Below are positions 1,068 through 56,010 of a stretch of 64,000 nucleotides of DNA, piece after piece; the stretch's first letter is position 1, and every line of letters starts with the position of its first letter. The stretch is from Amphiscolops sp. MND2022 (lineage: Eukaryota), in NCBI GenBank assembly GCA_964187785.1, contig OZ076409.1, positions 47,618,001 through 47,682,000 on the forward strand. Direction: 5' to 3'. Both the position numbers and the translations under genes were made by a program. The notes under the pieces are model-generated. The model did not search any database. It saw only the letters and a program-made list of their open reading frames with translations, and had not been told where the DNA came from.

Positions 1068-1217
1068 TGGCGCTGCGAGCTGAAAATTCAGCGCATTCTT
1101 CATCATCATCTTCACATCTCGTCGGGTTACCAGTATTCTGGAGTATTCTGGAGCGATGCGGTCGCAAACCCTCCGATGGATTGAAACAAGTGGTTTGACC
1201 TTTTTCAAGTAGCTATA

Positions 1218-4200
1218 ATGGCCAAATACTCCATATCCATTACGGAATTGACCAGAAATGTGGATCAGCAAAACCCCAGGGTTCGCGCTCTTCTCGGGGA
1301 TCTCGACGAGGATCCTGCAAACAAAAAAGTATTTAGTATCCTATACCTGTCATTAGGCGAACCCGCAAGAAAACAGTTCATGGATAAATATCCACACAGA
1401 GCACTGTGGGATTTAAAAGCCCAAGAATTGATAAACCTTTGCATCGAGTGTTTTCGGAAAAAGAGAAATAGAACGCTCGATAGACACCGACTCTTTTCAC
1501 GATATCAACAACAAGGAGAATCTCTGTTTCAATTTTGGCACGCCCTAAATGGGCTTGCGGCATTGTGCGACTTCGGGGAAATAACACCCACCCTGCTCCT
1601 GGACATGTTTATACTTCACATGAACAATAAAAAGGTGCAAGAAAAATTGTGCACTGAGCCTAAGGAACCTGACCAAGCATTAGAGTTCGCCCTTGCTTTT
1701 GGTGAAGGAATACAACGGCAAAAAGCCTATGGCGCACAAGCACCTGAATCAACAAAAACAGCTATAAAAAGTGAACCGGTCTAAGCCGTGGAGAAGACTA
1801 ACCCCAGGGAGTATTATAGATGTGGGGCAGCTAACTTCACCATGGATCACGTCAACTTCTGCATGGCCACCAACCACCGTTGTAAATTTTGTCAGCTGAT
1901 TGGGCATTTAGAGAAGTGTTGCAATAAAAAATTTCCCCAGCGGCAGAAAGAGATATTGCAACGACTGAAGAGCCGGGACAACAAAAAAGGAATGCGAAGA
2001 GTAAATTATATTGAAGAATCAGATGAAGAATCTGAAGAAGGCGAAGATGAAGAGCAACTAGTTCTACGTGTGGATGGCGACGGTTGCAAGCCATTTTGCA
2101 TGGAAGGAAAAATGTGCGGCAAATATTTTAAAGCAATCATCGATACTGGGTCACCGGTGTCCACTTTTACGAAGAGTGATTTGCAAAAAATTGTTGGGCC
2201 TAGAAAAGTGGTGATCAGGGACATGATTGCGGGAGAACGCTATGTTGATTACAATAAAAAAACCCTTGAATTTGCTTGGCTACCAATTCGTACGACTTGA
2301 AGTTGCAGGAGTAACAGTAAGAAAAGCACGAGTCCTAGTAGTTCCTAACTAAGGACAATCGATAGTGGGCCGTGATTGGCTAGTTGCTCTCCGCTACAAA
2401 ATTACGCAGCCGATAGAAAGAGGTGAGTGTAAAATAAATAAACAAAGTTTGAGGTGTGAAGAATCAATTAATGAGATAAGTCCTGAAAAAAGACTAAACC
2501 CCGAGGTTCAGCAATTGGTGGGGAATATACAAGTTTGTTCAAGCGGAAAGTTCGAGTGAAGAATTACAAAATTAAAATTAAAATGAAAGATGACGTGAGA
2601 ATTTCGCAGTAAGAGGGACGCCGTATTCCCATCCAACTACAAAATCAAGTGGAAAATGAAATTGAAAAGTTGTTAAAGGAGGGACATATTGTGAAAGTCG
2701 ACAAAATTCAAGACCACGTATTTATTCAGCCGACGGTAATACCTGTGAAAAAAGATGAGTCTGTGAAAATTGCCTTAGACGCGAGAGCGCTAAACCAATC
2801 AATAGCAAAAGACAAATACCAAATGCCTAATTTAGATATTTTAATTGACATGATTGCGGAGAAATTAGATGAAAAGGATGGGGAGGCGTGGTATTCGTCA
2901 GTTGACATGACGTACGCGTATGGGCAAATTCCGTTGCAAGAATTAACAAAAAGACATTGTAATTTTCAAATCGTGGGAGGAAAATCAACAGGCACGTACC
3001 GATTCACAACGGGATTCTACGGCCTTACTGTAATGCCAACAGAATTTCAGAAATTAATGGACCTCACTTTAGCAAATGTAAATAGTGTATTTGTATATGT
3101 AGACGATGTATTAATTGTAACAAAAGGAACTAAGCAAGAACACTTGAATAAAGTTAGGGAAGTATTGAAAATTCTGGACGAAGCGAATTTACAGCTGAAG
3201 GCAGAGAAGTGCATAATTGCACAAGAAACTATTGAATGGTTGGGTTATAAACTGACGAAACGGGCATATCCCCAGTTAATGCAAAAGCCCAGGGAATGAG
3301 CGATAGATTGAGACCAAATAATTAGAAGCAACTGCGCTCATTCCTTGGAGCGGTGAATAAATTCAACAATTTCATACCAAATTTAGCTAGTATTAGTTTC
3401 CCCTTTAGAACAATTTTAAAGAAAGATGCAGAGTGGATTTGGAACGACGAGCACGAAAAAGCGTTTGTCAAAATGAACGATGAAATAAAAAGAGTAGTAG
3501 AATTGTCACATTTTAAAAGAAACCAAGAAATACGAATTATTTGCGATGCTAGCAAACAAAGTCTAGGTGCTGTTTCACAACAAAGCCAGGCAAACGGAGA
3601 ATGGAAACCAATTTGTTTTGCATCTAGATTTTTATTCGATTTGGAAGCCAAATTTTTTATTAACGAGTTAGAACTTTTAGCGATAGCTGGGGCGGTAGAA
3701 CATTTTAGAAATTATGTATATGGGGTACAGTTTAAAATAGTTTCGGACCACAAAGCGCTAGCATCAGTATTAAAACCAAACAGGGGAAATAAAACATTTT
3801 CTAGTAGACTGACACGCTGGGTGGATAGACTGCTGCCATTTGATTTTCAGGTAGTACACGTCGCAGGGAGAACGCTAGGAATGGCAGATTATCTGTCAAG
3901 GCATCCCACGGAACTATACGGATCACCATTAAAGCAGAAACCCTGTGGAATGAATGGTTTAATGTAAACAGCGTAATTAGTTTAAATAATGTTTTAGATG
4001 GCAGTGAAGCGAGCAGCGAGCAAAGCAAGCCGGCGGAAAGTGCGAGCGGAGAGATTAGCATCAATCGAATAAATCAAGCAGGCTGCCAACAGCCAATCAA
4101 ATTGAAGAACGAACGCAATTCGCGGGAACCAAGTAAGCGTCATTGTGGTAAAAGCGTACAGAAACGTAAGATGAGTCAAAGTCCATCGATTAAACAATTA

Positions 4201-5779
4201 AATGGAAAGTTGTTGCCAGCGAATTATTGCGCTGACAAATTGATACAACAGGTTATCCGCCTAGTTAAAAAGTATAACAAAACAGGAGTTACCCGGCTAC
4301 CGTCCCCTTGGAGGGAAAAATTGAAAACGTTCTCACTCGACGAACGCAATTTCCTTTATACCGACAATCGCCTAGTTATTCCGCAGGCCATGAGGGCCAT
4401 GATAATGTGCTCCCTGCATTATGGCCATCCCGGTCGGGACGCCTTGCTGGCGTTGATCGAGGATATTTGGTGGCCTCGCATCCACCGAGAGGTTATTGAT
4501 CAAGCAAGATTGGGTGAGCAGTGCCTGCAGTCAGGTAAGAAATTAAAATACATGCTAAAGCAAAAACAAATAGGCAAACTGCCGGACGTAAAGGAATTGA
4601 ACGAGGCGGTAGCACTCGGTTTCGCAGGACCGTTCCAAAATGCGAAAAAAGGAAAGAATTATTTGCTAGTGTCAATAGATCATTTTTTAGGATGGCCGGA
4701 CGCAAAATTTTCACATCGCCCGACAACGAAAAAAGTGATTGAATTTTTAAAACAATGTTGCGCACAGTATGGAGTACCTAAGAAAATACGAACGGCTCCT
4801 GTCACAGTGTTTGTAAGTGAGCTTTTCACACAGTTTTGCAAACAATTTGGAATAGAGCAAATAACGGGTCCTATTAGACATCACAGGGGCAACGGGAAAT
4901 AGAGCGGTTAATCAGAACGATAAACGAACGACTCCGAACAAATAAACATGTTATTTTTACTAAGGATAAGACCGGATGGTCTGAGATCCTGTACTCGCTG
5001 AGAATTAGTAAGAAAAAGGACGGAAAGTCGCCGTTCGAAAAAAAATGGGAAAAGAGCCAAACACGGTGAAATCGAATTTAGTAGAAAGGTATCTGGACTT
5101 TTCAGCCCAAGATAATAGAGTGGAGTTTCAACAAGCGGACTTCCAAGACGAATGTGACTCAATGATGTTGGGGCGTGAAAGATCAAAAGGATCTAAATTG
5201 GAACCCGTGTTTGCCAGAAAGACCGGAAAAGTACAAGAGAGAGCACACACCATCGCAGTTCTGCCAGAAGCCGCAAAACACCCAAAGGTCTTCTCCAAAA
5301 GAGACATAATGCAGGCGTCCAAAGAGCAAAAGGACAAACTCAAGAAGGCAGGAAAACGGGCGATAATCGAGGACTCATCGAGCTCAAGCGAGTTGGAAAC
5401 ATCGGCAAAAAGAAAGGGGAAGAAGACAAAGTGTGGAAAGTCACTTCCCTCAGAAGTGAACACAAAGTGGGGAAAGGCACCAACCCCATAAATGGCTTTC
5501 GACCTAGAGAGCGAGACGCAACCCTCCATTATCGATATTACCTCAACTATCGAAACAAACGACAAGGCGCCTAAAGATGCAACCCCGCCAAAACAAGAGG
5601 AAGCGTCAAAAGAAGAAAATGGCCCAGATGATGCAATCCCGATAAAAGCCACGACATCGTGGCAGGTGGAGAAAAAGGGGCCCATAAGATACTCGGAAAG
5701 AAAACATGTGCCGCGAAAACGTTACGGAATCGATCTGGTCACTGAAGAGAAGGAAGGGCCCGAAAAAGAAGTTAACTAG
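1218..5779 (+). pseudogene. Disrupted gag-pol polyprotein (double Zn knuckle, protease IIDTGS, RT YVDD, RNase H CDAS/ELELLA/SDHKAL, integrase HYGHPG, long charged tail)
   Basis: Consecutive ORF fragments 1218-1784, 1788-2300, 2649-3299, 3353-3967, 4102-4902 and 5045-5779, separated by stops and frameshifts. Confidence 0.93.
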
Positions 5780-12216: not shown

Positions 12217-12561
12217 ATGTCTGGGAAAGTTATCACCGTGAAGGCGGTTGAAAGTTTCGATGGGAATGGAAGAATGGAAGAAACCAATGAGAGTCCTTCG
12301 ACGTTACAAAAAAAATGTGGAATTTGGAAACTGTGTCGGCAAAATGTGTGGGTCGTGGTCACATGGATTGTGTGTTTGACCGTTTTGGGCTTGTTTACAA
12401 TGAGTGTGTTCTATGAGTTCATTGAAAACAATCCAGTGACAATTATAACGTTCATAAACAAGCCAGAGTATCCGGATCCAGTTGTGGTCAAAGTCTGCCC
12501 CTCAGTATTTTTGGATCAGCAGAAAATCCTGAGTTACAACGGCACCGAAATCAACTACAAG
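12217..12561 (+). CDS. DEG/ENaC (ASIC-like) sodium channel, exon 1 of 4; join(12217-12561,13257-13579,14499-14739,15250-15813), about 490 aa
   Basis: ATG start, hydrophobic TM1 (VWVVVTWIVCLTVLGLF), then YPDPVVVKVC at the FPAVTIC position. Exon end inferred at AAG|GAAGGA (non-canonical donor). Confidence 0.85.
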
Positions 12562-12627
12562 GAAGGACTGCCATACTTACCATTTTGTTTTTGTTTTTTA
12601 TCTATTCATACAAATATTTGACTACAT

Positions 12628-12878
12628 AAATTTCGAAATGTTTTCGACGCAATTTCCGCACAAACATTGCTCGATATTTTAGGCAATGTAAAGCTCGAGT
12701 GAAGTTTTCAGCAGAAAAATTTATGTAGAAAGTTTCTTGGCTAAAGCATTTTTGATGAAAACTGATGTTATAACTTTCTATATAAATTTTTCTGCTGAAA
12801 ACTTCACTCGAGCTTTACATTGCCTAAAATATCGAGCAATGTTTGTGCGGAAATTGCGTCGAAAACATTTCGAAATTT
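12628..12878. repeat. 107-bp near-perfect inverted repeat (37-nt spacer) in intron 1
   Basis: 12628-12734 versus 12772-12878; one mismatch seen. Confidence 0.95.
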
Positions 12879-13016
12879 CATTTCCGAATAAAATACTTGG
12901 GCATCTTCGAAATCCCAAACAAAGCTTAAATAGACTGAAAAACTTAAAAGGCGAGTTTTGTTGAAATTTTGAACATGGCCGAGTCGAACGAATTTTTGTG
13001 ATCGAAAATTTCGATT

Positions 13017-13183
13017 CCCATCGATGGGTCATCGATGACCCATCGATGGGATCATCATTAGAAAAAGCTCATCGATGCCCATCGATGGACCATTGATGGC
13101 CATCGATGGGCCCCATGGGACTGCGATGGCCATCGATGAACTGCGATGGCCATCGATGAACTGCGATGGGATCTCAGTACGGG
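13017..13183. mobile_element. Right end of a MITE (CCATCGATGG repeats, TCAGTACGGG terminus) in intron 1
   Basis: The terminus is the reverse complement of CCCGTACTGA at 9309; the subterminal repeats resemble those of the 9309-10092 element. Confidence 0.65.
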
Positions 13184-13256
13184 AATAACCACATGGGGTA
13201 TTAATCAAAACTTTGGGTGATCAAAATAGTTTCGCGGAATGGCAGTCCTCACCTAG

Positions 13257-13579
13257 GCCTACCAGTTCTTGTATGAAGCTGTTTCTGGCAACAGCAACTT
13301 TAACGATACTTCCTCGGTTGTGATTTCTCCCATGAAAGACATTTTCCTAGTGAGCTCCAGGATTATGGAAGAATTCTCATTGGACAAAGAGGCCTTCATA
13401 GTGAGCTGTTTTCTCGTTGGACATTACGATGATTGCTTTCCTGCCTTAGAGTGGCATCTGGATCCTGCACAGCCTTGCTACAGTGCAATAATTGACGTAC
13501 GAGGTTATGGAAAGTCCAATACTCTCACTATCAGTCTGTTCTTCGATCCAACAAGCACTTTAGGCAGGTACACTTCAAG
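13257..13579 (+). CDS. DEG/ENaC channel exon 2
   Basis: CCTAG| acceptor with an in-frame stop just upstream; FIVSCFLVGHYDDC...PCYS matches the palm/finger pattern; AG|GTTAGT donor, phase 2. Confidence 0.88.
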
Positions 13580-14498
13580 GTTAGTCAGTGCCTTCTTTTG
13601 AAGCAAAATACTCAAACTCCAAAGTTGCTTTTTTTGGTTTCAAGTCCCGAATATCAGACGTGATCATTTTCAAGTTGATCAGTTTGCCATCAAATGTTTA
13701 CTTGACGAGAATATGAGGCTTACACCCGCTAACCTAATCAACTTGTTTGCTAATATAACTGGTAAACATTATAATGGACTTTTCATAATTCGTCTGGTGG
13801 AATATTCGACTTCTCCGCCAAATTTCAAACAATTACGTGCACTTTGTTTTAATGAACACTGCTAGAAATATGCATAATGTAGTGTAGGACAATTTTTACG
13901 TACTATTTATAAATGTTGCGCAATGATCATTCAAATATTGGAATTATTTTAAAATGTAATCGATTGAGGCATTGTTTTAACACATGGTTCTAAGAAAGGC
14001 TGAGATGGAGTTTGATTGAGAAATTGCCCATTTGAATTCTTTTAAAAACATCAGTTTTCTGATTTTTCATAATCAATCGGGGTTCATCGATTCCGATTAA
14101 GAAGATTGCTTGGAAATTTGAAAATCTATATCAATGCCAGAGACATTTGATAAAAGAACTAACTTTTGAAGAATATCTTTCCTCTGATCACTCGGTGGAA
14201 TAAGAACAAGTTTGGTGAGTCAATAGTTGGAAACTGTGAAAACATAAAAACTCAATCTTTAATTTTATTTTTAAAAAAGCAATATAAATCGTTTTTTTTT
14301 GTGGTTTCTAAACACCTTATTGCATACATTACAATGAAGCTAAAAAGGGCCGTGTCTTTAACTTTACCGATTGTGCTCAACCATATTTCTCAACTATTTG
14401 AGTTGCTATGTTGAAAACTACTTGAGAGCATGATGAATTTTCTTTACAATTAACGACCCAGAAAATTGAAAACAAACTTTATTAATTTCAAATTTTAG

Positions 14499-14739
14499 GT
14501 TGGGTGCTTACGTCACATTCTCTCACCCCGACGACTACATGGCGCCCTCTGACGGCATTTTTGTGGGGCCACAGGAAGCAGCAGTGGTATCAGCGTCCGT
14601 TGTTCATAAAAAGCAGACCAAGTCTTTTGAGAAAGCTGCCTGCGTGAAGAAACAGGGTCTGGATTGGTACAATTTCACCGGAATCCCTTTCCTGTTAGAC
14701 TACCAACCAGAGCATTGTGTATCTTTGTGTTATGCTCAG
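14499..14739 (+). CDS. DEG/ENaC channel exon 3
   Basis: TTTTAG| acceptor, phase-compatible with exon 2; GAYVTFSHPDDY...GIFVGP and start of the Cys-rich thumb (CVSLCYAQ). End inferred at CAG|GAATGT. Confidence 0.88.
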
Positions 14740-15249
14740 GAATGTCAAATTTCTTGTAGAAATAGTAACGCATTCCATATTCTTCTTACCAGTTGGAAAA
14801 GTGGAATTTCTTTAACTGAAAACAAAAACATCAACTGAACTAGAGTATTAAATTTTCATTTTCATTTTTATGAACAATCAAACGCGTCCTCTCAGCACCA
14901 AGTTTTTTTGCTATTTTTGTTCTATTGATATTCATGATGGCCAGCACAAGCAAAACTGTGCCAAACTTGCACGAAGAGTTCGAAATATTTTATAGGGGAA
15001 ATTTTCATTCGCCATTTTCTATTTTTTCCAAAACACGTTTTTTACGGCACGTTTCACAAAAAATGCAGTTGTATCTTCACATGTTACGATCCTATTCATT
15101 GAAATCGAATTGCTTTCCCTGTGCTCATGGTCGAACTGAATGAGATCATAATCAAACTTCCAACCAATATGGATAACAAACCTCACGTAACTTTGTAGAA
15201 AACCAGTGGAATGCAATATTTGAAATTTGATAACTTTATTTGTCATCAG

Positions 15250-15813
15250 TCCTTCTACAAACGGTGCAACTGTTCATCTCATTTGGGTTTGAACATTACG
15301 AACACGGAGTGCATCGAGGATGAGAATCTGCGAAGATGTGTTCTTATAGCTATTCGTGACTTCAAAACAGAGGTTCAACGGAGCAAAAAATGTTTGGGTA
15401 GCTGTCTCACAAAATGCGAGCATTCTTCCTATGAACTCAGCGTTCGCAAAGAACCTCAACTGGTTCCCGGTGAGAAAATGAGGCTTTTGCTGACTTTGCT
15501 AGTTACGCAAAATTACACAAATTCAACTCTAGTCCATAATTTATTCCGAAGAATGGCTCACCATCCTAAACCGCTCGAAGAGGCTAAACGTATCTCGGAA
15601 AACATTGGACAAGTAACATTCTTTCTTCGGAACAATCAGCAGGAAACAAAATTCGAGGTCATTCCTTTCTTGACATTTCCCACGTTCGTGAGCAATGTCG
15701 GAGGTCTGGTTGGAATGTGGCTTGGAATCAGTGCCATCTCGCTCATGCAGTTCCTGGAGAAAAAGCTGACGTCAGTTTTTTCTACCAACCCAACAGACGC
15801 ACTCAGAAGATGA
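15250..15813 (+). CDS. DEG/ENaC channel exon 4 (thumb cysteines, TM2)
   Basis: CATCAG| acceptor; CNC...CLGSCLTKCEHSSY; TM2 signature FVSNVGGLVGMWLGISAISLMQFLE with G-x-S filter; TGA stop. Confidence 0.92.
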   Translation, partial: SFYKRCNCSSHLGLNITNTECIEDENLRRCVLIAIRDFKTEVQRSKKCLGSCLTKCEHSSYELSVRKEPQLVPGEKMRLLLTLLVTQNYTNSTLVHNLFRRMAHHPKPLEEAKRISENIGQVTFFLRNNQQETKFEVIPFLTFPTFVSNVGGLVGMWLGISAISLMQFLEKKLTSVFSTNPTDALRR

Positions 15814-34199: not shown

Positions 34200-37100
34200 T
34201 ATTTGGCCTCTGTATCGTTTTCATCCAAGTCGTAGAGTAAGTGAGTGAGAGATAGCTATTGTATGTTGAAGAGATTTGAAGTGAGATGTAGGATAGTTGT
34301 CCTAGTAAGTGTCTGGGGCGTTTTCAATTTTCTGATCTCCGGCCATCGTCTGGGCCAAGGTCCTCCAAAATTTGTATTGGTGGGCCTTCATCCAGGCCAC
34401 TGTTCGGATTTGGCCTATTTTTTGATTTGATCACTAGGGCGTTATAATCACTAGGGCAGAGTCCGGCTTCCAGTTTGAGGCTGGGTTTTGTCGGGGATTG
34501 TATTTTGATTTTCGGGGGGATTTAGGGAGTTGGCTAGTATTAGTATCCACGTTGATGCTTTCAGCTGATTTGTCGTGTTCCATCGTAATATCTTGGGTGA
34601 TGTCCTCAGTGATGTCTCAGCGTTCTTATCATAGTATTGCTTTTACCGTATGTACGAGTGTAGGAGGTGCTTGCTCACTGCCTCATGGACGCATCTTGAT
34701 GCCCAGGACACGGGTTGTGTCAGCCATTACTTCAGATATGAACTGGAACCCTTTGTCAGTCATGAGGTTTGTGGGGAGGTACGCGTGGCGCGTCATGTTG
34801 TCGACAAGTACTCGGGCAATGGTCTTTGCGTCAATTCTGGTGACTCAGTATGTAAATAAGTATCGTGAGAATACATCCATGGCTGTAACTATAGCCGTTT
34901 ATCCGTTTGATGGGTCGTCGAACAGGACGATGTCCATCTGTAAGGAATCTTCTGGTCCCATTGCGAGAGCGGAAGTATTATTCATTGGCGGGGTGAGTAA
35001 TCTGTCGTCTGTTCGTTTAGTTTGCTTGCATTCCATGCATTGGTTGATGTGTTTGGCAATTCTGGATGCTAAACCTTCAGAGTAGAATTTTTCGCGGCAT
35101 TGTTGTAATACTATGGTGTTCCGAGGGTCCTTGTTGTTCTTTCCGTGGTGGGCCTTAATGAAAGCCTTGACTAAGTGTCTCGGGAAGAGTACTTGTGAAT
35201 ATTTAACTTTCCCAGTCTCGTCGAAGAACTGCCGGTATAGCAGTCCATCCTTGAGGATGATACGGAATTCTTGGGCGATGTACTGGAGTGATCTCCGGTC
35301 TGTGGCCAACAGTTGTTCGTTATAGGGTTTTTTAGAAGGCAGTAGTTTTTGTAGTTTTTAGGGTTCTTGTAGTTTCGCAGGACATGGTCTTGGCCTTGTT
35401 GGTGTCTCATGTCACGGGGTAAAGTATGATTATGGTGTTTTTCTTCGACACAACTTCGTCTGATTACTGCTGTTTCAAATATGGTTGTATCGTTCTCTGT
35501 ATTGGTTTCGTTGGTTTTTGGGTCTCCTCCTGGCGTTGGGGTGGTGTCGTTTTCGAGGGTTTTTACCTTGTTCTCTGTTTTCTCTCCAAATTTGTTCTTC
35601 TGTCTCTGTTTCGTCGGCGGGGAGGAAGTAGAACTGTTCCATTTCAGCGACGTTGGATGACTGGATATGTACCTCAATGGGTGAGGTTTGGATGTCATCT
35701 CGTATTATGAGTTGGACCTTATCTTTGGGGTCAAGGTCGAGTCTGGATAGAAAATCTGCTGCGGTATTCATACTACCTGGGACTTGTGCAATTGTTAAGT
35801 TGAACTGCAGGACAAAGTCACATGCATTCCACAGGGCTGGAGGAATGATCTTAGTCTGACAAAAACGGGTCACAGAATTGTTGTCCGTCAGGAGGATGAC
35901 CGGTTTGGTCAATCCCCAGAGAAAGTGGTTGTACTCCATGAATGCGAAGTATATGGCCGGGAATTCTTTGGCGTAGCTGGACATTTTGATCTGTGACGGT
36001 GAGAAGGTTTTGGAACGGAAGGCTACTGGGGCATTTGTCTTTTGCTGACGTTATTCTCTCATTGGTGTATTCCCCAATCTTGAGGGCGTAGCCGGCATTT
36101 TTGAAAATTGCGTCAGTCATAAGTACGTATTGCTTTTTGGATAGGGGTTGTTTTAACTATAGGCCACATGCGTTGTCCAGAGCCTTGTTGTTGCATTCGA
36201 ACTTTGTTATGATCTCGGTGGTGATTTTGATCGGTTGGTCAGCATTGACCAGGTCATGGAAAGGTGCCTATTTCTCAGAGAGTCTGGGTATGTAAATGCG
36301 GTAGTAATAAACAATCCAATGTGCCTTTTTGGAAACGACAATTTTTGGAGGAAGTTTTTGTTTTTGTGTGGTTGGGGGCAATGCCTTCTGGTGAGTCGGT
36401 TCGTCCAAGGAATTCGACTTCCTTGTCACCGAACTGAAAATTGGCCATCGTCAGCCGCAGACCTGCTACTCTGACGCACTGAAAGACCTCGCGCAGGTTG
36501 ATCTTCAACTCCGTGGCGTTGTGAGCAGCTATCCCGATGTCGTCGACGTACTTAGCGCATTTGTCAGCTTTAATGACTCATTCGAGATACTCCTTCATAA
36601 GGCTCGGAGAATGAGGAGAGAGATCTGCTGAACCCTTGTGCAAGTCGCAGGTATGCGAATGTCCGACTGGACAAATTGGACGCCAGGAGTTTCACTGATT
36701 TCTGGTCTGCCATTCCCAAAACATGGCAAGCTTGAGAACAGTCGAGCTTACAAATCAGTTTCTTTCCTTCCAAGTGCCAACGCTATGGGTCAGGTCATCT
36801 TTCAGGTTAACGGGGCATGGCAAACTCTGTGTGTAGGCTGTTTTGGGGTGAGTTTGATTTTGAACTCTATGTCCGGGCGATGCCTGGCGAAGATTTTGTT
36901 GTATTCCACAAGTATATCTTCAGTATCAGCTTGGTCTTTTTCGTTTAGTTGGGAGTCTTCCCATTTGAAGTTTGCAAAAGTGGATGCCCTGTCCTTTGGG
37001 TTTTTGTAAAGATTGAGTTTCTGGATAGATTCGAGTTCTTGGATTTCGCGCAGGATTCTACTTTGAATTGGGGTGTGGGACGACGGATCGCATGGGTTAT

Positions 37101-38050
37101 CTGGTGTGGGAAACCAGAAATTATGGTTGGGTTGGTGTATCTCAGCTGACTTGAGAAGCTCAATGACGTATTCCAGGGCTTATTCAGAGTCGTCGTCAAC
37201 CAGCGCCTTGAGTGTTGCTGAGTTTAGCGGTTTAGCGGTTGTAGTTGCTTTGATTCTTGTGGGTAAAGCATGGTAAACTCTGCGACGGTTGCGTTCCTTT
37301 TTAATGTGAACCGGTTTGGTAAGGTATTGGTGACGCGTACTTCGAATTTAGAAATTGAAGCGGTTGATAGGGAGCCTGCGATCACTATATGGTTTTTTCC
37401 TGAGTATGGTTCGGTCGGGTGAGTAATTCCCGTGGTGTTTCTGAGGGTGCGTTGATTGATACCTGCCTCAACTGTGACGCACTGGTCTGGCATTATGGTT
37501 AATTGATTTCAGATAGTGACTTTGTGGTTTCGTTGTCATCTGCTGAGATGGCGTAGGTCAGGTGTGAGGAGTGAAGTAGGGCCTGACTGGCGTCTAGGAT
37601 GGCGCTATTGTTTTTGAGAAACGTGAGACAGAGGATGGGACCCGTTGATTTTGTTGCTAGAATGAAGGTTTATTGGAAGGTCCAGTTGCCAATGTCAAAC
37701 TGGAGCTGGACCGTTTTGGTGGGCGCTGCTAAGTCGCCGTATGCGACGTGTAATTTGAAGGTTGGTGGCTCAATCTGTTTGACGATATTGTCTGGGCTGA
37801 CTGATTTGATTTTCTCGAATTCGCTCTCTGGTAGGGAATTAACGACTGCCCCCGAATCTATGAGTGCGTCTATAGATAAAATGTTTAAGTCCATAGGGGC
37901 GAACAGGTTTTTCTTCTTTTTCAGGGTAATGGCTAAAAAAGTGGGAGGCATTGCTCACTGGTGTTTGGGCTTGTGATGGCTCATTGAGTTGTTCGTTTGT
38001 GTGAAGCCAATCGGCGTCTTTTTCATCGACTGGTAATTTCGGAGGTTCAG
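34200..38050 (-). pseudogene. Heavily degenerate Ty3/Gypsy pol (PR-RT-RH-IN)
   Basis: IDALIDSGAVVN (~37850), KLDCSQA, YVDD (~36540), TDA..NAGYAL, KEFPAIYFAF/LLTDN/ADFLSR, integrase HH-CC and QMDIV motifs. Confidence 0.9.
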
Positions 38051-47262: not shown

Positions 47263-47472
47263 TGTTGTAATCTCTTTGCTTAACAAAAGTTAACAACATA
47301 AAACTGTATTCGAACATCAATCTTTTCGTACTGAATAAAGATCAGCTTTTTAGGTATAGACAATAGTAGCAGGTACTAAGGACATCTAGACAATTAAGTA
47401 TAATGGTATTGAACAATAGTAATGTCTGTCTATGATTTGTCCTCTAACTCTAGTTCTTTAGCTGCTGCTTCA
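47263..47472 (-). repeat. 3' LTR (210 bp)
   Basis: TG...CA, adjacent to the PPT, matches 53190-53399. Confidence 0.97.
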
Positions 47473-50066
47473 CTCCCCCCTCCGCGATTGGATAATAGTT
47501 GACCAATGGGGGAGGTTTGTTCTTTATGGCGGTTTTCCGTCCAAAGCAATTTTGGTGTATTCGCGGTGGCCCGCGATTCGTCAGTTGTCCGGTTGAATTG
47601 TTCTGCCTGGACTGGCTCTTCCATTGTGTCGTTTAGTATTCGACGCTGCTGGTCTTTTCCCGAGTGTCTTCCTCGGTTTCTGGTGTCTTCTGGGCGTTTA
47701 GTCTGTTTACGGTGTTTCCTGTAATCAGATGTTATGGGATTATTAAATCTAATAATGGGGTTTGTTTTTGTTAATCTTTTCGATCTCCGTAAGTTGTGTT
47801 CTTTTGTTTCTTGTTCTATTTCGGTGCTAGAACTTAGGTTACTGATTAATTCTAGGTCGGAGGTTTCTGTTTCTAGGTTGTTTTTTTCCTTATTCTCTTT
47901 CCCTCCGTAAACGGTATTGTTGTTATTAAGAGTTACCTTACCGTTTAAGTCTTTGATAAAAAGTTCTGTGTCATTTTGTTTGGCATCTTCAATGATACGG
48001 TCAATGTCCGTATCCGTCATGTTTTCCGTAATGATGGTTAGAGGGCCGAGGCTGTCCGTTGAGCCGGTAAGTGAACCAGGGCTTTGTCTGTTGCGGACCA
48101 GTTTTGGGCGTCCTCTTCCAAATGATCCGCTTGTTTTTGTGGTTGGCGTAGTTGGGTTGCTTCGGGATTGTGTGCCCTCTGTTATTTGAGTAGTATCCAT
48201 TTGTGGTGTTGTTGGATTGCTCTTCTCCGAGTCGCTGTCTGATTTGGCTTCTCGTGTCAGTCTGGGGGATTTTATGAACCGGCCGTCCGGTCCTCTCAGT
48301 CCCATGCCTCTGTTGTTCTGTTCCTGTTCAAATTCAAAGATTGGTTTACTAATGTGTTTTCTATGTAGGATTCTATTTTCCGCGGTTGTGACCGTGTGTT
48401 TAGTTCCCGATATGGCGGTTTGTAGTTTATTTGAGTAAGCGCTCTCAAATTTCGGTTTATTTATTCTTTTCTCGAGAAATTGAAATGGGTAGGTACTCAC
48501 TCCTTTTTGTCCTTTCTTTTGTTTCATCGGTAGCTGGTCAGAGGCACCGCCAGCTCCGTTGAAGGAATATACCTGTAGGGTATCTGGTTTTGCTGAAAAA
48601 CAATTGTTTGTTATAGTTTTCAGTTTATCTAAGTTTAAAAGGTTACTGATTTCCGTATTCGGTTCTCGTCCGTAGTGTAATTCAAAAGCAGATTTCCCCA
48701 ATCTCGTGTGGGGTGTTTTTCTCATCACGTTTAAGGCTATGTCTAATGCTTTGTTAAATTTTTCGCCCGCTTTTATGTTCGTCAGCATTGTCTCTTTCAA
48801 AGTCCTTACGCCGCGTTCGACCAGCCCTGTGGGGGTGTGTATATATGGTGTCCCATATATGAGTCTAATGTGGTGATTTTTACAAAACTCTCTAAAAGTG
48901 TGGCCCGTAAATGCCGTGGCTTTATCCGTTCTAATAGTTTTCGGAATGCCGTTCAGGTTTATATATTGTTCCATAAATTTAACCGTGGTTTCGCCGTCGG
49001 TCGATTTACAAAGGCTTGCCGCCGGCCATTTGCTAAACCGGTCCATTGAGAGTAAAATAAAAAACCTTTGGTTTCTTTCGGTGAACGGTCCGATAAAATC
49101 CAGTTGTATTTCTTCGTTCGGATTGTTTAAAGCCGGTAATTGGTTTTTTTCCGTATTATGTAAGTTAGGTTTGATATTCTTACCGGACATTTTGCACGGG
49201 ATGCAGCCGTCGCATTTCTTTTGTATGGCCTCGGTGATTTTTGGCCACCAGAAGTGTCGTGCCGCCATTGACATCTTGTTGATGGCGGGATGGCCTTTAT
49301 GGAGGAGGCTGATCACCGTTGTTCTGAGATTTTTCGGGACAATTATGCGGTCTTCATAGAACACGAGTCCGTACCTGGTAGATAATTTTCTTCGGCATTG
49401 CTGGTATTCTTCTGGTATGTTGTCTTGTTGCTGTCTCTCAAGGCACACGAGTGTTTTTAGGAGAGTCGGGTCATTAGTTGTCTCTGTCATCAGCAACTGG
49501 AGATCTGTGGAGAAATTCTTCTCCGATTCACGTACCGCGTTTCCGAGGTCCCAGTTGTTCGGCTCTTCCGCGGTGGTTCTGGGGGCATGTCCCATTTTTA
49601 TATATTGGACGCTTTTAACGCCTGCGTATTTTGCCCAATTAACTGCGGGGACTTCGAGTATGGACGGGTCTTGATCGGATTCCGAGTCAATTTCCCCTTC
49701 TTCCATCGGTACTGGTTGTTGCTGCGAGGGCCCGGGTCTGTCTTCTGTGTTGGCCGTAGCTTGCGGTCTGTCAATGTCCCAGAACGGGTCAACCGTCCAT
49801 TGTTCCTGTCTTCTGGTTTCCGGTTGAAATCCCCCGTCTGGTTCTTGTTGATTTCGGCTTTCTAGGTTTCTGATGGCTTGTTGAAGTTGTTCTTCAATGA
49901 CTCGTCTCTCGTTTCTCAGGAATTTGGGTTCGTGGTACTTTTTCCAGCGGCCACCTGACTGTCTATAAACCCCGGGCTTTACAATATCTCTCCATCTAGC
50001 AATGAGATATCTAGTTTCTGTCGAGTTATCAGCTTGTTCAAGATTATCGATGGTTCTGGCGTCCAT
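47430..50066 (-). CDS. Integrase with long N- and C-terminal extensions
   Basis: 878 aa; HKGHP...CIPC zinc site, QLDFIGP, IRTDKA, GLVER (DDE); stop lies inside the 3' LTR. Confidence 0.95.
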   Translation of the reverse strand: MDARTIDNLEQADNSTETRYLIARWRDIVKPGVYRQSGGRWKKYHEPKFLRNERRVIEEQLQQAIRNLESRNQQEPDGGFQPETRRQEQWTVDPFWDIDRPQATANTEDRPGPSQQQPVPMEEGEIDSESDQDPSILEVPAVNWAKYAGVKSVQYIKMGHAPRTTAEEPNNWDLGNAVRESEKNFSTDLQLLMTETTNDPTLLKTLVCLERQQQDNIPEEYQQCRRKLSTRYGLVFYEDRIIVPKNLRTTVISLLHKGHPAINKMSMAARHFWWPKITEAIQKKCDGCIPCKMSGKNIKPNLHNTEKNQLPALNNPNEEIQLDFIGPFTERNQRFFILLSMDRFSKWPAASLCKSTDGETTVKFMEQYINLNGIPKTIRTDKATAFTGHTFREFCKNHHIRLIYGTPYIHTPTGLVERGVRTLKETMLTNIKAGEKFNKALDIALNVMRKTPHTRLGKSAFELHYGREPNTEISNLLNLDKLKTITNNCFSAKPDTLQVYSFNGAGGASDQLPMKQKKGQKGVSTYPFQFLEKRINKPKFESAYSNKLQTAISGTKHTVTTAENRILHRKHISKPIFEFEQEQNNRGMGLRGPDGRFIKSPRLTREAKSDSDSEKSNPTTPQMDTTQITEGTQSRSNPTTPTTKTSGSFGRGRPKLVRNRQSPGSLTGSTDSLGPLTIITENMTDTDIDRIIEDAKQNDTELFIKDLNGKVTLNNNNTVYGGKENKEKNNLETETSDLELISNLSSSTEIEQETKEHNLRRSKRLTKTNPIIRFNNPITSDYRKHRKQTKRPEDTRNRGRHSGKDQQRRILNDTMEEPVQAEQFNRTTDESRATANTPKLLWTENRHKEQTSPIGQLLSNRGGGSEAAAKELELEDKS

Positions 50067-50142
50067 GATAATTTTATCTTTCGGTGCGGTTTGAATTGAG
50101 CTGCTGATTTGTGAACTTTTAAGGCAATTAATGGCGATTTGT

Positions 50143-52266
50143 TCACGCGTTTTGGAATGTTTTGGTGTGTTGTTTGCTTTGCGCGTAGTCTTTTTGCGTT
50201 CCGTGTTTTGATTGGTTAAAATGGTTGCTAAGGCAACCGTATTTGGTTACGAATTTGTAGTGCGGGATGACGTTATTGATTACGTATTCTTCGTCGTATA
50301 CGTCATCGGTTTGTGGAGGTGCCGACGGGCTACGACTGAGATAATCCGTGAGTGCTAAATGTTTGCCGGCTATATGGCTGACGTTGATTGTGAAGTGCGC
50401 TAAGCGGTCGAGCCACCTCGTTAGCCGCGCGCTGTACGTTTTATTGGATCGGTTGCGTTTAATTAATGGCTCTAATGCTTGGTGGTCTGTCAATAGCTTT
50501 ATCGGTTTACCGTATATATAAAGACGGAAGTGTTCTAATCCCCATACGACTGCCAATAATTCCAATTCATTGATTGCGTATTTCTTTTCTGTATCGGAAA
50601 GGAAGCGACTGGCAAATCCGATCGGTTTTAAATCTCCGTTTGGCTGTTCTTGCCACAGCGTTGCGCCCAATCCTTTTGTGCTGGCGTCCGTTGTTAATAT
50701 ATTCGGACGGTTTGAATTGTAGTGAGCCAGACACGGTATTTCCGTGATTTTTTGTTTTAAGTTTTCAAACGCTGTGGTATGTTCATCGGTCCAATTCCAA
50801 GTGTTATCTTTTTTTAGTAGCTGTCTTAAGATGTCGGTTTGTGCTGACAGATTTTCGATGTATTTTGATAAATATTGAATTGCGCCTAGGAACGATTTTA
50901 GTTCCTTCTCATTTTCGGGTCTTTTCAGTTCTTTTATTGCGGTTAGTTTGTCCTGTAACGGTCTAATACCGTTTTGGTCAATTTTGTGGCCGATCCATTC
51001 TATTTCGGTTTTGAAAAGTTCAGATTTGTTCTCGCTTAGTCTGTAACCCGCGTTTTCTAGTCTCGTTAACACATCGATTAGTTCCTCCATGTGTTTCTGT
51101 TTTGAACCTTTGGTTACTACTATAATGTCATCTAGCCATGCTGGATGTTTGTTTTCCAACGTTTGATCGATTTTCTCTTGGAAAATGGTCGGTATGTCCG
51201 CTAACCCGTAAAATCCTTTCAAAAAACGATAGTAACCGGTAAAATTACCTCCGGTCACCGCGAATATGCAAAGGTCCATTGCTCGTTTCGATAATCGTAG
51301 TTGACCGTACGCATAATCTAGATCGAACTTCGAGATCCAGATTTCGTCTTCCGGTCCGTCGGCTATTTTTCTGGAGATTCTTGAAATTAGTTCCTCCATG
51401 TTTGGCATTTGTGCTTTCCTTTTTACCGTTATCTCGTTTAGTTTCCGGGAGTCCAGGGCTATTTTTACCGATTTATCTTTTTTGATCGTTATTACCGCCG
51501 GGCTTACAAAGCATGTTTCGTCAATGTCGTTTGCTTTTTCAATGTGCCCTTGGTTTTTTAATTTTTCTATTTCTTTTTCTACCGCCGGTTGTAAATGAAT
51601 CGGGATTGGTCGGCCCTTTTGTTGAATTATTTTCGCTCCTTCTTTTAATTGGATATCTACTTCTATGTTATTTACCGTGTGGTTTTCGTTAAATAGTTTG
51701 TGAAACTTACGTTTTAGTGTTGTTATGTCTCGGTCTTCTGTATTTCCCATCTGGGTTATGTGGTTGATTTCTGTTTTGGGAGTTTCTACCTCTAGTGTAA
51801 TTCCCAGTTTTCCCATCCAGTCTAGTCCGAGTAACGGGTGGGTGTTTTTAGTTGTTACCAGTATTTCCAGTTGGTGTTTTGTACCATTCAATTCGACATT
51901 TGCGGTGATTTTTCCTTCAAATTTTATTTTGTTGTCGTTAACGTCCCGATAATCTACAGTTATCGGTTTGAGTGTTGTCACCTTGTTGAATTTGGATTTT
52001 GGAATAAGAGTTACTGGTGAACCTGTGTCAATTATGAATTTGATTGGTCGGTTGTTAACCAATACCGTCTTCATGTAGAACGGCGGTCCGTTCTTGTTAT
52101 TTGTTGCCAGTGAATGGATTTTTGGTTGTATCATATGTATTCTGTCTGGTGTCCAGTCATCTTCGTCCGCACTGTAAGTTTCTTCTTCTTCTTCTGCTAT
52201 ATGGTTGATTTTTTTTCGATGAGCGGCAGCATTTGGCGAAGTGTCCGGGTTTACCGCATTTGGCAC
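50143..52266 (-). CDS. pol: Pol: protease, reverse transcriptase, RNase H
   Basis: 707-aa frame; IIDTGS, FDLDYAYGQ, WLDDI, TDAS, ELELLA, TDHQAL, DYLSR. Confidence 0.96.
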   Translation of the reverse strand: MPNAVNPDTSPNAAAHRKKINHIAEEEEETYSADEDDWTPDRIHMIQPKIHSLATNNKNGPPFYMKTVLVNNRPIKFIIDTGSPVTLIPKSKFNKVTTLKPITVDYRDVNDNKIKFEGKITANVELNGTKHQLEILVTTKNTHPLLGLDWMGKLGITLEVETPKTEINHITQMGNTEDRDITTLKRKFHKLFNENHTVNNIEVDIQLKEGAKIIQQKGRPIPIHLQPAVEKEIEKLKNQGHIEKANDIDETCFVSPAVITIKKDKSVKIALDSRKLNEITVKRKAQMPNMEELISRISRKIADGPEDEIWISKFDLDYAYGQLRLSKRAMDLCIFAVTGGNFTGYYRFLKGFYGLADIPTIFQEKIDQTLENKHPAWLDDIIVVTKGSKQKHMEELIDVLTRLENAGYRLSENKSELFKTEIEWIGHKIDQNGIRPLQDKLTAIKELKRPENEKELKSFLGAIQYLSKYIENLSAQTDILRQLLKKDNTWNWTDEHTTAFENLKQKITEIPCLAHYNSNRPNILTTDASTKGLGATLWQEQPNGDLKPIGFASRFLSDTEKKYAINELELLAVVWGLEHFRLYIYGKPIKLLTDHQALEPLIKRNRSNKTYSARLTRWLDRLAHFTINVSHIAGKHLALTDYLSRSPSAPPQTDDVYDEEYVINNVIPHYKFVTKYGCLSNHFNQSKHGTQKDYAQSKQHTKTFQNA

Positions 52267-53134
52267 ATTTCTTTCCTTTCGCCGGGCATTCGTGTTGTTT
52301 GGACCAATTGGGAGCTCCGCATCTGTTGCAGTCCATTCTTCTAAATTTTGTATTTTTTTCCGTATGTTCTTTTGTGGATTTGAATTTTCTCTTTTCTACA
52401 TGTCTGATTTTCTTTTCTTCGTCAGTTTCTGGAGAGTCGTTCAGTTTTTCATACATGTACTCATGTATTTCGTCTGTTATTGTCTCAACTGACATGTCGC
52501 CTTTGCGTATTTTCTTTTTCAATTCGTAATCTCCGGTTGACTTCCCTATGAGTGATAAGAATTTGGATGCTAGTAATTCTGCAGCCGTGATATTTTCGAA
52601 TTCACAGTTCTTTTCGATTTCCAGGAGTCTTTTCCATACATCTGCTGCCGTTTCTCCGTTTTCTCTCTTCATATCGAAGAAGTCTGATCGGCTGTGTTGT
52701 ACGTTCCGTTCCGGTGTATAATGTAACCGGAATAGTGTGTATAGTTTATATAGTGGGAGGGAGCTCGGTTCTCTTTCTCTTACCGTCTTGGTCATTTCGG
52801 TAAGGGCATTTTGTCCAATTGCCCAGAGGAAGATATCTTTTATCTCGTTTTCCAATTGTTCCCGATATTGTGGTAAGATCTCTTTGGAATTTACCATCGT
52901 TGAAATGTCGATTTCTTTCGTCATTTTCACGTATTGGACGAATTTTCGCCACCACAGATTTGCACTGGTGCTATCGTATTTTTCCAGACTTGGTATCGAT
53001 AGCTTTTGGGTACAAGTCCGCTCGCCCGTTCTCATTGAGGTTTCATTGGGCGGTTGCCGGATACTTGAAGATTGGTCCATTGACCGGTGGGGTCGTTCAC
53101 CATTCGTGGGTGATGTGTTGTGTGATTCGTCCAT
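52157..53134 (-). CDS. gag: Gag with tandem Zn knuckles
   Basis: 325 aa; CNRCGAPNWSKQHECPAKGKKCAKCGKPGHFAKCC. Confidence 0.93.
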   Translation of the reverse strand: MDESHNTSPTNGERPHRSMDQSSSIRQPPNETSMRTGERTCTQKLSIPSLEKYDSTSANLWWRKFVQYVKMTKEIDISTMVNSKEILPQYREQLENEIKDIFLWAIGQNALTEMTKTVREREPSSLPLYKLYTLFRLHYTPERNVQHSRSDFFDMKRENGETAADVWKRLLEIEKNCEFENITAAELLASKFLSLIGKSTGDYELKKKIRKGDMSVETITDEIHEYMYEKLNDSPETDEEKKIRHVEKRKFKSTKEHTEKNTKFRRMDCNRCGAPNWSKQHECPAKGKKCAKCGKPGHFAKCCRSSKKNQPYSRRRRRNLQCGRR

Positions 53135-53189
53135 TTCCGTATCGTGTGTAGTAGTTCTTGGCTAAGCGTAAGTTAGCCTGACTGCGCCA

Positions 53190-53661: not shown

Positions 53662-56010
53662 TGGTGACCCTCTCGACGTGATATTGGTTAGATCGTTCCT
53701 AATTCTTTCATATGGTACGCCAAAGTATTTACCTGAAGAACAGCTCGGAATATTTGATTCTGTCAGATTCATTTCTGAAAAAATTCAAAACAATTTCTTT
53801 CGACGTTTTGTCTGTACCTGGAGCTCGCCCTCATAATCTTTGGGTTTTTTTACCACCCCATAATAGGTTTGAGATTATTCGAGGGGGGTAACGCATTAGA
53901 GAATTTTCAATCGATAACGGCACTTTTAGACCAGCTCAAGAACCAATTGAAGTTGCGACCGAAATACTTGAACTAGCTCGAGCACTTCGTTTGCGTACTT
54001 TAACAGTTTTCTTTAACGGCCTCGAGGTACTGAAGAATTACAACATAAAGTGTTGCAATTAAACGCTGAGCTTAAGTTTTTTGCAACTCACAGAGGCAAC
54101 GAATAGTTTTTGTTGGCATCTCGCATTACCTTTACGACTTGAAGCATATATCCAAAGATCTGTCACTTTGAAGAAGGAGCTTTCGCAAAAGTTTACAAAT
54201 AACAAAAAGATTTTGAGAAAGAACAGTTCATACTTTTTGGAAGGAATGAACTACATATCTTTTCTAACCAGATATTCCCTTATTTCCCTTTCACTAATTG
54301 AAGTGTGCTGCCTGCAAGGGGCTGTGCTCAACCGGAAAAACGATAATTGCTTCTCATCATTTGAAATACATAGAACAGGACTACAATGTCCAACGAAACA
54401 CGAAGACTCCTAGCCTCTCGAAAGGCTCATATGGGCGTTGTCACTCGAAAGGACAACGAGTTCGACAATATTAAAACGAAACCCACTGAAGAAATTACAG
54501 CGGATGATATATTACTAGCAAAACCGGTGTTAGAATCACTGACTGAAAAAAAGCTAAAATTGGAGAAAGGTATCTCAAAATTCTCGATGCTACTGAAACG
54601 TCTGACGAGGCCTTAGAAGCGGAAAATTTCGAAAAAGATGAAATTGAAACAGGTAAAATCGTTGATGAAAAGCATTCAAAAGTGGATTACAGAACATACA
54701 TCTGATGTCGACGAAACATCGTCGCTTGGCTCAAACCACCGTGACAATGTTCGTCTTCCTCGAATTCAACTTCCCTCTTTTCATGGTCAGTATAAAGATT
54801 GAAAAACATTCTTTGATATGTTTAAAGAAACTGTGCACGAACAGCAATCTTTACCCAAAGTAAAAAAGCTTTACTATATCAAAGATGCTTTGGAGTAAAA
54901 GCTAAACGTGTTCCCATTTGCCTACAACTGAAGCAAATCATCATGCAGCTATTCAACTCTTGAAAGGTCGATACGATAATGAGTTTTTGATCACAAAAGC
55001 GCATTTAAATAACACTTTCATAATTGATTCCATGAAGAAAGACAACCTGATGAAACTCATTGGTATTTTTAATGAAGATGAGATAGCTTTTAGTGCCTTG
55101 GGATTTCACACAAAAAAGTATGACTTCGTTTGGGTGCATATACTTTCCGAAAAACAGGGTTCTGAAACTGCTCGTGGTTGGCAGTTGAGTAATGCTGATG
55201 TAAAATTGCACTCAATGGAGCAATTGGGAAAGTTTCTGGAATATCGTGCTCGTGCATTAGAAGCATCTTGCCGATCTTTAGAAACCACTCAAGGGCTGAA
55301 AGGGCTGCGATAAAAGGGCTGAAAGAGAAACCTGTCAAAGGTATCAGTCCAATTCAAAATCTTGTCCTGTGTGTAAGAATGCACATCGGATATGCACCTA
55401 TCCAGCTTTCTTGTCTTTATCGCTCAATGAAAGACATCAAAGGATTAAAGAACTTCGACTTTGCTTTAACTGTCTGAAGGAAGGTCTTAGTATTAAGAGT
55501 TGTACCTCGAAAAAGTCTTGCCAAACCTGTAACAAAAAACACAACACATTGTTACATCGGATTAATACTGTCTCCGTTCACTTTACTGAAAATACCCATA
55601 CCACAACAAATGACGACCGTCAATTTACAGGACATCAGCAACAGTCAAGTTACACGACAGTTCTTCTTACTGCTATTGTTTCTGTAATTGATTCGCGAAA
55701 TAAACTTGTACAATGCCGGGCTTTATTGGATAGTGGCTCGCAACTTAGCTTTATCACTGAAAAATTGGCTGATACATTGAATCTAAACAAAGATGATGTA
55801 AACATGAACCTGAGTGTTATCGACGGCAAGGCAAAAGAGCTGGTCGTGTCAAACTTGTTTTGAAATCTGGGTCGAAACAAGTCATCGTTTCAGCGTGCAT
55901 TTTGAAACAACTAACAAATAGCATACCGAGTAAACTTCTGAAAGTTCCTACCACACCTACCAATATCTCTTTGGTTGATCCCAATTTCGATGTCTCCAGG
56001 CCAGTCGACA
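53662..56010 (+). mobile_element. Truncated BEL/Pao LTR retrotransposon (PBS, gag, protease)
   Basis: tRNA-Trp-type PBS TGGTGACCC(TCT)CGACGTGAT at 53662-53682; RLPRIQLPSFHG; triple Cys/His knuckles (LCFNCL...CQTCNKKHNTLLH); RALLDSGSQLSFIT. Confidence 0.92.

Follow-up and report, generated by a model that had tools for sequence, protein, structure and literature searches.

The window analyzed here is a 64,000-nt stretch of the genome of the acoel Amphiscolops sp. MND2022 (contig OZ076409.1, positions 47,618,001 to 47,682,000). The mitochondrial COX1 agrees with an acoel source, as its best named matches are acoels (Symsagittifera at 79% and Baltalimania at 77%) and no other named animal exceeds 69%. 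On its forward strand the window carries a DEG/ENaC channel gene whose first and third introns begin with GA. The four exons form a single open frame of 490 amino acids: exon 1 at 12217..12561, from the start codon to ...TAC AAG; exon 2 at 13257..13579; exon 3 at 14499..14739, whose terminal CAG is likely the first three bases of a transposon end; and exon 4 at 15250..15813, which runs to the stop codon. Between them lie a phase-0 GA-AG intron of 695 nt (intron 1, 12562..13256, AAG|GAAGGA...CCTAG|GCC), a phase-2 GT-AG intron (intron 2, 13580..14498), and a second phase-0 GA-AG intron of 510 nt (intron 3, 14740..15249, CAG|GAATGT...ATCAG|TCC). An earlier note on this DNA, made from its letters alone, had proposed these three introns within an otherwise intact frame, and our analysis bears this out.

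Membership in the DEG/ENaC family is supported by a Pfam ASC match on exon 4 (PF00858, E 2.7e-16) and by the cysteine spacing, which the note had pointed to at the intron 3 junction and which agrees with that of the paralogs. Exons 1 to 3 alone had no Pfam match. Searching the genome with exon 4 gave 94 matches, many of them in open frames of ~430-630 amino acids that represent intron-free paralogs. This large family expansion is mostly intron-free and clustered on contigs C1, C6, C8, and C12.

In our junction test, the AG acceptor was held fixed and every in-frame donor was scored against a homologous protein. GA scored highest both at intron 1 (159 vs. 117 for GT and 116 for GC) and at intron 3 (301 vs. 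258 for GT and 281 for GC), and it remained the top donor at both when scores were averaged over 24 templates. The two GA junctions also aligned without gaps to 22 of 22 intron-free paralogs and to P0001, which is 67% identical. Sliding either junction along its terminal repeat produced no GT-AG, GC-AG, or AT-AC pair. Applied as a control to Prp8, the test called 30 distinct junctions, 28 with GT and 2 with GC donors, after one further junction had been passed over and a spurious chain end removed. The 100 kb fetched did not extend to the 5' part of this gene. Because Prp8 gives only GT and GC, the test does not create odd donors.

Two points in the earlier note fared differently. It had held intron 1 to be the less certain of the pair because of a weak upstream phase-0 GT. 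That GT exists, at 12505, but the gap-free alignments and the top score of GA make intron 1 as firm as intron 3. It had also set aside the GT dinucleotides downstream of the intron 3 donor as being in phase 1, which holds for all five sites up to ~60 nt away, but it overlooked phase-0 alternatives nearby, namely GC at 14734 and 14770 and GT at 14719.

A paralog on another contig (L046, on C7) has the same three introns, with GA again at introns 1 and 3. It lacks 4 nt at the intron 1 donor and still uses GA there. The presence of GA at both introns in this second gene therefore makes a base-call error unlikely. The ratio of nonsynonymous to synonymous substitution rates (dN/dS) between the window gene and L046 was 0.19 over 478 codons and 0.12-0.22 within each of the four exons, as expected under purifying selection. 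The shared donors, this selection on all four exons, and the recurrence of a tight donor motif in other genes (see below) all count against an unspliced pseudogene or GA bases produced by assembly errors. The assembly is not flawless, as one dynein junction reads CT-AG, perhaps through a dropped base, yet we give this explanation a nearly negligible chance. The GA-AG arrangement is confirmed at the DNA level, from which we infer splicing, and both introns are very probably removed as called.

In their surroundings, the two introns look like U2-type introns, with G at +1, an AG acceptor, an exonic AG before the donor, A at +3, and G at +5. They depart from that type in carrying GA at +1/+2 in place of GT or GC. 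Nor do their donors (GAAGGA and GAATGT) resemble the U12-type donor, RTATCCTT.

Purine donors in three gene families

Our counts of donors with a purine at +2 (GA or GG) are samples from three gene families, the channel family, the dyneins, and Prp8, and are not genome-wide. The channel family provided 57 junction calls from 45 loci; nine further junctions were skipped for long gaps. After exclusion of 11 calls whose best donor lacked an initial G, two GG calls tied with GC, and one low-scoring GT, the 43 resolved introns comprised 23 GT, 7 GC, 6 GA, and 7 GG donors. The 13 purine donors occupy eight independent positions. Among the dyneins, in-genome templates failed to resolve 23 of 77 junctions and were replaced by outside templates. 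These yielded 326 junction groups across 16 gene stretches, and 256 groups satisfied our rule: 242 GT, 8 GC, 4 GG, and 2 GA. GA or GG was the best donor with an initial G in 11 of the 70 dropped groups, never after AG. In Prp8, no GA or GG donor occurred among the 30 junctions.

The purine donors share a strict context. An exonic AG preceded all 15 best-scoring GA/GG calls in the channel family, compared to 19 of 526 background GA/GG candidates. When the 19 GA/GG donors were pooled (11 of them GG), all had the exonic AG, 17 had A at +3, 15 had T at +4, and 18 had G at +5. By contrast, +4T was present in just 26 of 293 GT donors. The relaxed or alternative 5' splice-site recognition suggested in the earlier note is therefore only partly borne out. 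GA and GG donors do recur in unrelated genes, but an alternative small nuclear RNA (snRNA) system finds no support among the intact snRNA genes. The tolerance is narrow and is not a general loosening, given 0 of 30 in Prp8 and GT in ~95% of dynein introns.

Some junctions in these samples stood out individually. One dynein stretch (L155-L157 and L245, on C11 at ~6.15-6.19 Mb) held GA or GG in 4 of its 16 resolved introns, compared to 2 of 240 in the other 15 stretches. The CT-AG junction mentioned above lies in another dynein (L149, on C7 at ~65.116 Mb), where paralogs have GT, and the assembly may have dropped the G of a GC donor. In a channel paralog on C1 (L048), intron 1 has a GT donor, and its best-fitting acceptor is seemingly TG, which our AG-only test leaves without a call.

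Inverted intron ends and their origin

We compared the donor region of each intron with the reverse complement of the 3' end of the same intron. Inverted ends joined the two intron ends in 14 of 19 GA/GG introns, 6 of 17 GC introns, and 12 of 293 GT introns (Fisher p 1e-13). With a stricter arm score, they were found in 13 of 19 GA/GG introns vs. 3 of 270 GT introns from the dyneins and Prp8. Ends cross-paired between different GA/GG introns matched in 12-26% of cases, a rate that is raised because these introns share a motif. Most GA/GG introns with inverted ends read CAG|G(G/A)ATG, the same terminal sequence as in free-standing hAT-type transposons of the genome. The right-arm motif was likewise present in 7 of 19 GA/GG introns and in 1 of 293 GT introns. 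Within the CAG|GRAT class, the right arm most often stopped 11 nt short of the intron end (in 6 of 15 rows), as would result from an 8-bp target duplication plus a host YAG, with the cut made after the first three bases of the element. Two introns look young in this respect: a GG intron (L085) with a 13-bp arm and a duplication matching at 7 of 8 bases, and a GC intron (L102) whose ends match at 14 of 15 bases, whose duplication matches at 7 of 8, and whose acceptor lies exactly 11 nt out.

Free elements of the matching kind were also found. Elements that start with YAGGGAT and are flanked by 8/8 duplications lie in L288, L157, L119, and L305, and one further element begins TAGGA. The element at L305 has the end TAGGGATGTAC and matches the hAT dimerisation domain (PF05699), of which the genome has at least 150 matches. 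Near-identical autonomous hAT copies (99.7% and 99.96% between copies) with 8-bp duplications are present as well. The maize hAT elements Ac/Ds have the end motif YAGGGATG and an 8-bp duplication, and Ds is removed imprecisely via internal GT donors, although a literature search confirmed neither point. By contrast, the purine donors here would lie within the first bases of the end itself.

Intron 3 of the window gene falls in this class, with the donor CAG|GAATG. The left end of the putative hAT-type element, CAGGAATGTCAAATTTC, lies across the donor at 14737..14753 (+), and a remnant of the right inverted repeat at 15222..15232 (+) matches at 10 of 11 bases (11 of 11 in L046). This register puts the element end 11 nt before the intron end, which equals an 8-bp duplication plus CAG. 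A decayed candidate duplication of 14729-14736 is present at 15239..15246 (+), with 4 of 8 bases matching (5 of 8 in L046). We propose that a hAT-type element with the end CAGG(G/A)ATG inserted in the exon and produced an 8-bp duplication. The donor would then be cut three bases into the element (CAG|G), and the acceptor would be a host YAG ending three bases beyond the second duplication copy, restoring the length of the message. The +2 base would be the fifth base of the element end, which is G in most free copies and A here, probably through a later G-to-A change.

Intron 1 appears to follow a different geometry. Its left arm, AGGACTGCCATAC, lies at 12564..12576 (+), and its right arm, at 13239..13249 (+), stops 7 nt short of the acceptor; the match is perfect over 11 bp here and over 14 bp in L046. 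This intron, too, is likely an old DNA-transposon insertion, in which the element would have landed so that both splice sites derive from the duplicated target AG|G. The A at +2 would be a base of the target or the first base of the element, possibly mutated from C or T. The same geometry, with both sites from a duplicated AG|G, was seen in GC and GT introns of the channel family (L089 and L049). For the intron 3 class, a short terminal repeat starting with YAG was found to be shared with an element bearing hAT transposase sequence. No inverted ends were detected in intron 2. Further inside intron 1 is a hairpin at 12628..12878, with 107-nt arms that are 99% complementary. It is likely a later insertion resembling a miniature inverted-repeat transposable element (MITE), and L046 matches it in part. 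A cluster of short palindromic CATCGATG repeats at 13011..13169 is unmatched in the intron of L046.

Where these introns sit is consistent with gain by insertion. The two window sites are those spanned without an intron by all 22 intron-free paralogs, channel-family intron positions are mostly gene-specific with intron-free sister genes in the tree, and between 3 and 12 paralogs lack an intron at each of the dynein GA/GG positions. As in introners, the arms (11-14 bp in intron 1 and 10-11 bp in intron 3) stand in register with the splice sites. No multi-copy family was found, as the intron 3 sequence matches only L046 in the genome. We rejected a young introner family as the source of the window introns, given their low-copy end motifs and the lack of recognizable copies elsewhere, and the insertions should therefore be old. 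Introns 1 and 3 thus appear to act like introners outside any detectable young family.

Several observations weigh against a transposon origin. For the class as a whole, acceptor offsets in the CAG|GRAT group spread over 9-16 nt around the favored 11, and 5 of the 19 GA/GG introns did not reach the arm threshold. Pooled duplication identity was modestly above chance (36 vs. 25.9, p 0.016), with offsets picked by best arm match. Two of the six dynein GA/GG positions are each common to one paralog, and these positions therefore need parallel gain or an older intron. In the window gene itself, the introns are old. The sequence of intron 3 is matched only by L046, and the exact end motifs have only five and six hits in the genome, two and three of which lie in the window gene and L046. 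The duplications have decayed to 4-5 of 8 or 5 of 9 bases. The outer right arm of intron 3 has been lost in the window (score 6.5, below threshold). For intron 1, a duplication of 8 bp would be possible only if one base has been lost; otherwise it would span 9 bp.

The same observations bear on a different history, in which long-standing GT introns lost their +2 T by drift under a generally lax spliceosome and the inverted ends are chance matches or later insertions. The two dynein positions that coincide with a paralog intron would fit such drift, as would one dynein GA intron without arms and the weak use of GA and GG in human cells described in the available part of PMC6280755. Yet the arms are in register with both donor and acceptor, the GGATG motif is distant from the GT consensus, Prp8 has no such donor among its 30 junctions, and the family positions are gene-specific with intron-free sisters. 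We therefore consider drift very improbable. The arms also raise a second possibility, that the introns are cut by a paired-end route like the non-conventional introns of euglenids, or that the +2 base is edited in the RNA. Pairing of the arms would indeed extend over the donor, with the +2 A opposite a C in one dynein intron. However, the arms are free to decay, and that of intron 3 has turned T-rich in its outer part, as in a normal acceptor tract. The introns also carry signals of the spliceosome, namely AG acceptors, an exonic AG, and +5G. Adenosine-to-inosine editing makes GA read as GG and not as GU. Such a route seems extremely unlikely.

Still, we regard a transposon origin of the GA/GG intron class as likely, with intron 1 less certain in detail. 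It is also likely, if somewhat less so, that introns 1 and 3 in particular are old DNA-transposon insertions removed by a U2 spliceosome that accepts A or G at +2 in strong donors. The odd donors are thus likely to have been recruited for splicing from transposon ends or target sites. This likely source of the donors, the inverted-repeat ends and target duplications of DNA transposons, was missed in the earlier note.

Three further observations on intron ends and positions were made. A genome-wide count of the right-end motif followed by an acceptor (846 at a spacing of 8, 983 at 7, and 645 at 9) was dominated by repeats and uninformative. We also considered GG donors converted to GT and rejected them: six GT donors read GTATG, and by eye the right arm was present in none. 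Finally, intron positions in the channel family (L046-L110) cluster, with nine pairs at most 4 nt apart vs. 3.5 expected (p ~0.01), which could reflect insertion hot spots, sliding, or alignment error.

Splicing machinery and comparison with known systems

The earlier note had advised a search for variant U1 or U6 snRNAs, and the intact genes offer none. All ten full U6 copies keep ACAGAGA, all 14 U5 copies fetched, from at least 48 matches, keep loop 1, and no variant U6 or U5 pairing motif occurred among the full copies read. Of 23 U1 matches, 21 were above the cut-off (L031-L045 and L121-L126). Their 5' ends form six variants, all with A opposite +2, and none of these 21 intact genes matched GA or GG donors. 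Since the U1, U5, and U6 motifs look standard, we would expect proteins, or else a minor U1 variant, to carry the change. Under the standard machinery, we favor strong exon-side pairing that compensates for the +2 mismatch. The exonic AG would pair with U1 and with U5 loop 1, and +3A and +5G would pair with U1 and with the U6 ACAGAGA box, so that the mismatch at +2 is tolerated. This is in line with the U5-class donors described in the available part of PMC11732430.

One degenerate U1-like gene could suggest a modified account, in which the introns still come from transposons and a dedicated U1 variant recognizes their donors. This gene (L128, G000:C12:24891569-24891732; 36 bits, E 2.6e-6) has the 5' end CAUUCC, which is complementary to G|GAAUG and could pair with G|GGAUG via G-U wobble. 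It carries exactly the two core changes needed. Compared by eye to a standard copy, about three stem pairs are changed on both sides, some of them in a seemingly compensatory way, and the Sm site is intact. Other U1 5'-end variants, such as ACUAACCUG, exist in the genome. However, L128 falls below the Rfam cut-off, its stem I is short by 4 nt, and it has a 7-nt insertion. It has no closer sibling among 11 matches, and a loop-based pattern found no further U1 genes among its 30 hits. The transposon end already accounts for the +4T bias, and intron 1 (GAAGG) mismatches a CAUUCC U1 at +4. A dedicated U1 therefore seems unlikely, and tolerance of +2 by the standard machinery is the account we favor.

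Other candidates and features of the machinery were noted along the way. A second U1 candidate, L207, turned out not to be U1, and loss of METTL16 as the cause of +4T was rejected because an intact PF05971 frame is present. The ACUAACCUG variant (three copies) is complementary to GTTAG, the donor that occurs most often in the dyneins (36 of 242). Three U1 genes (L037, L044, and L126) are of three different body types yet have one upstream sequence and one 5' end, ATATTTAAACCTG, in common, as though a single 5' piece had been swapped onto each. Many of the U5 matches (L175-L188, G000:C6, ~35.07-35.13 Mb) lie in a tandem array with a period of ~680 bp. The Sm-site region of U5 reads CTCTTTTTCAA and lacks the initial AU known from other animals. 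One genome search for U12 snRNA gave no match, which is not proof of absence; going by this single search, the minor spliceosome may have been lost.

GA/GG donors and transposon-made introns are each known separately from elsewhere. GA and GG donors are exceedingly rare in most animals, at 0.006% and 0.014% in human (cited in PMC5714493), whereas in the copepod Eurytemora affinis they make up ~12% of introns, with RNA-supported junctions (Robertson 2017, PMC5714493). The copepod and the acoel share the use of both GA and GG, an obligate exonic AG (19 of 19 here), +3A (17 of 19 here), lineage-specific positions, and a standard U1 5' end. Frequency sets them apart, as the ~10-12% level of Eurytemora compares with ~2% of dynein introns here (6 of 256), none of 30 in Prp8, and 13 of 43 in the channel-family sample. 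GA dominates in Eurytemora (31 of 36), whereas GG leads here (11 of 19). By our own count, +5G occurs in 6 of the 36 listed Eurytemora donors, vs. 18 of 19 here. PMC5714493 proposes no transposon source for these donors. CAG or TAG is the terminal triplet in 31 of the 36 Eurytemora exons, a pattern that would be compatible with such an origin.

GA-AG introns in Oikopleura dioica, as well as in Eurytemora, are covered in the available portion of Frey and Pucker 2020 (PMC7072748), which suggests a variant U1. As here, GA-AG in Oikopleura follows a conserved AG and precedes an A. The differences are that Oikopleura belongs to another phylum, that its U1 variant alters another position, and that the accessible text contains no link between transposons and donors. 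Introners derived from DNA transposons with terminal inverted repeats (Gozashti et al., bioRxiv 10.1101/2022.06.06.494994; PMC12130899) are similar in that, going by the portions available, they recruit their splice sites from the element end, the target duplication, or both and leave the message without net change. Introner families with up to 40% GA donors are reported there. Those introners form young, near-identical families, whereas the introns here are old and have in common an end of just 8-15 bp. Transposon-derived non-canonical introns in Fritillaria borealis, Amoebophrya, and Polarella appear in the accessible part of a review (PMC11282704), and they too couple transposon-made introns to a more tolerant spliceosome. 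According to that part, non-canonical ends dominate there (AG-AC and AG-AT in Fritillaria) or U1 is missing. Here, by contrast, variation is confined to +2, with G at +1 and the AG acceptor retained and with U1, U5, and U6 of normal appearance.

What is new is the presence of inverted, transposon-like ends on GA/GG introns. Our literature searches did not find this link in any animal with GA/GG donors, and they found no report of GA/GG donors or introners in acoels, although introner datasets could hold one. "Acoel" and "Xenacoel" are absent from the main text of PMC12130899, and word searches in the accessible text of acoelomorph papers gave nothing on GA/GG donors or introners. Where GA/GG donors are common their origin has been open. 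Here, they appear traceable to the fifth base of a transposon end or to a base of the duplicated target, tying intron gain to spliceosome tolerance in an animal phylum without an earlier report. In copepods and Oikopleura, the idea could be checked simply by looking for inverted ends that lie 11 nt inside the acceptor, and what enforces U at +2 becomes a testable question. An annotation that admits only GT and GC donors would disrupt an estimated few percent of the introns of this genome, among them four within a single dynein stretch. A bolder and doubtful extension would be that the acoel spliceosome has adapted to hAT ends, with CAG|GGATG/CAG|GAATG as a standing donor class in hundreds to thousands of introns, helped by a U1 variant that would have evolved to fit these ends, and with the Eurytemora donors arising likewise.

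Away from the channel gene, the window contains Ty3/Gypsy-like retrotransposon frames and a BEL/Pao-like fragment, at 1185-5500 (+), 34400-38000 (-), 47430-53161 (-), and 54900-55900 (+). These were named by eye, and the one at 47-53 kb has long open frames.

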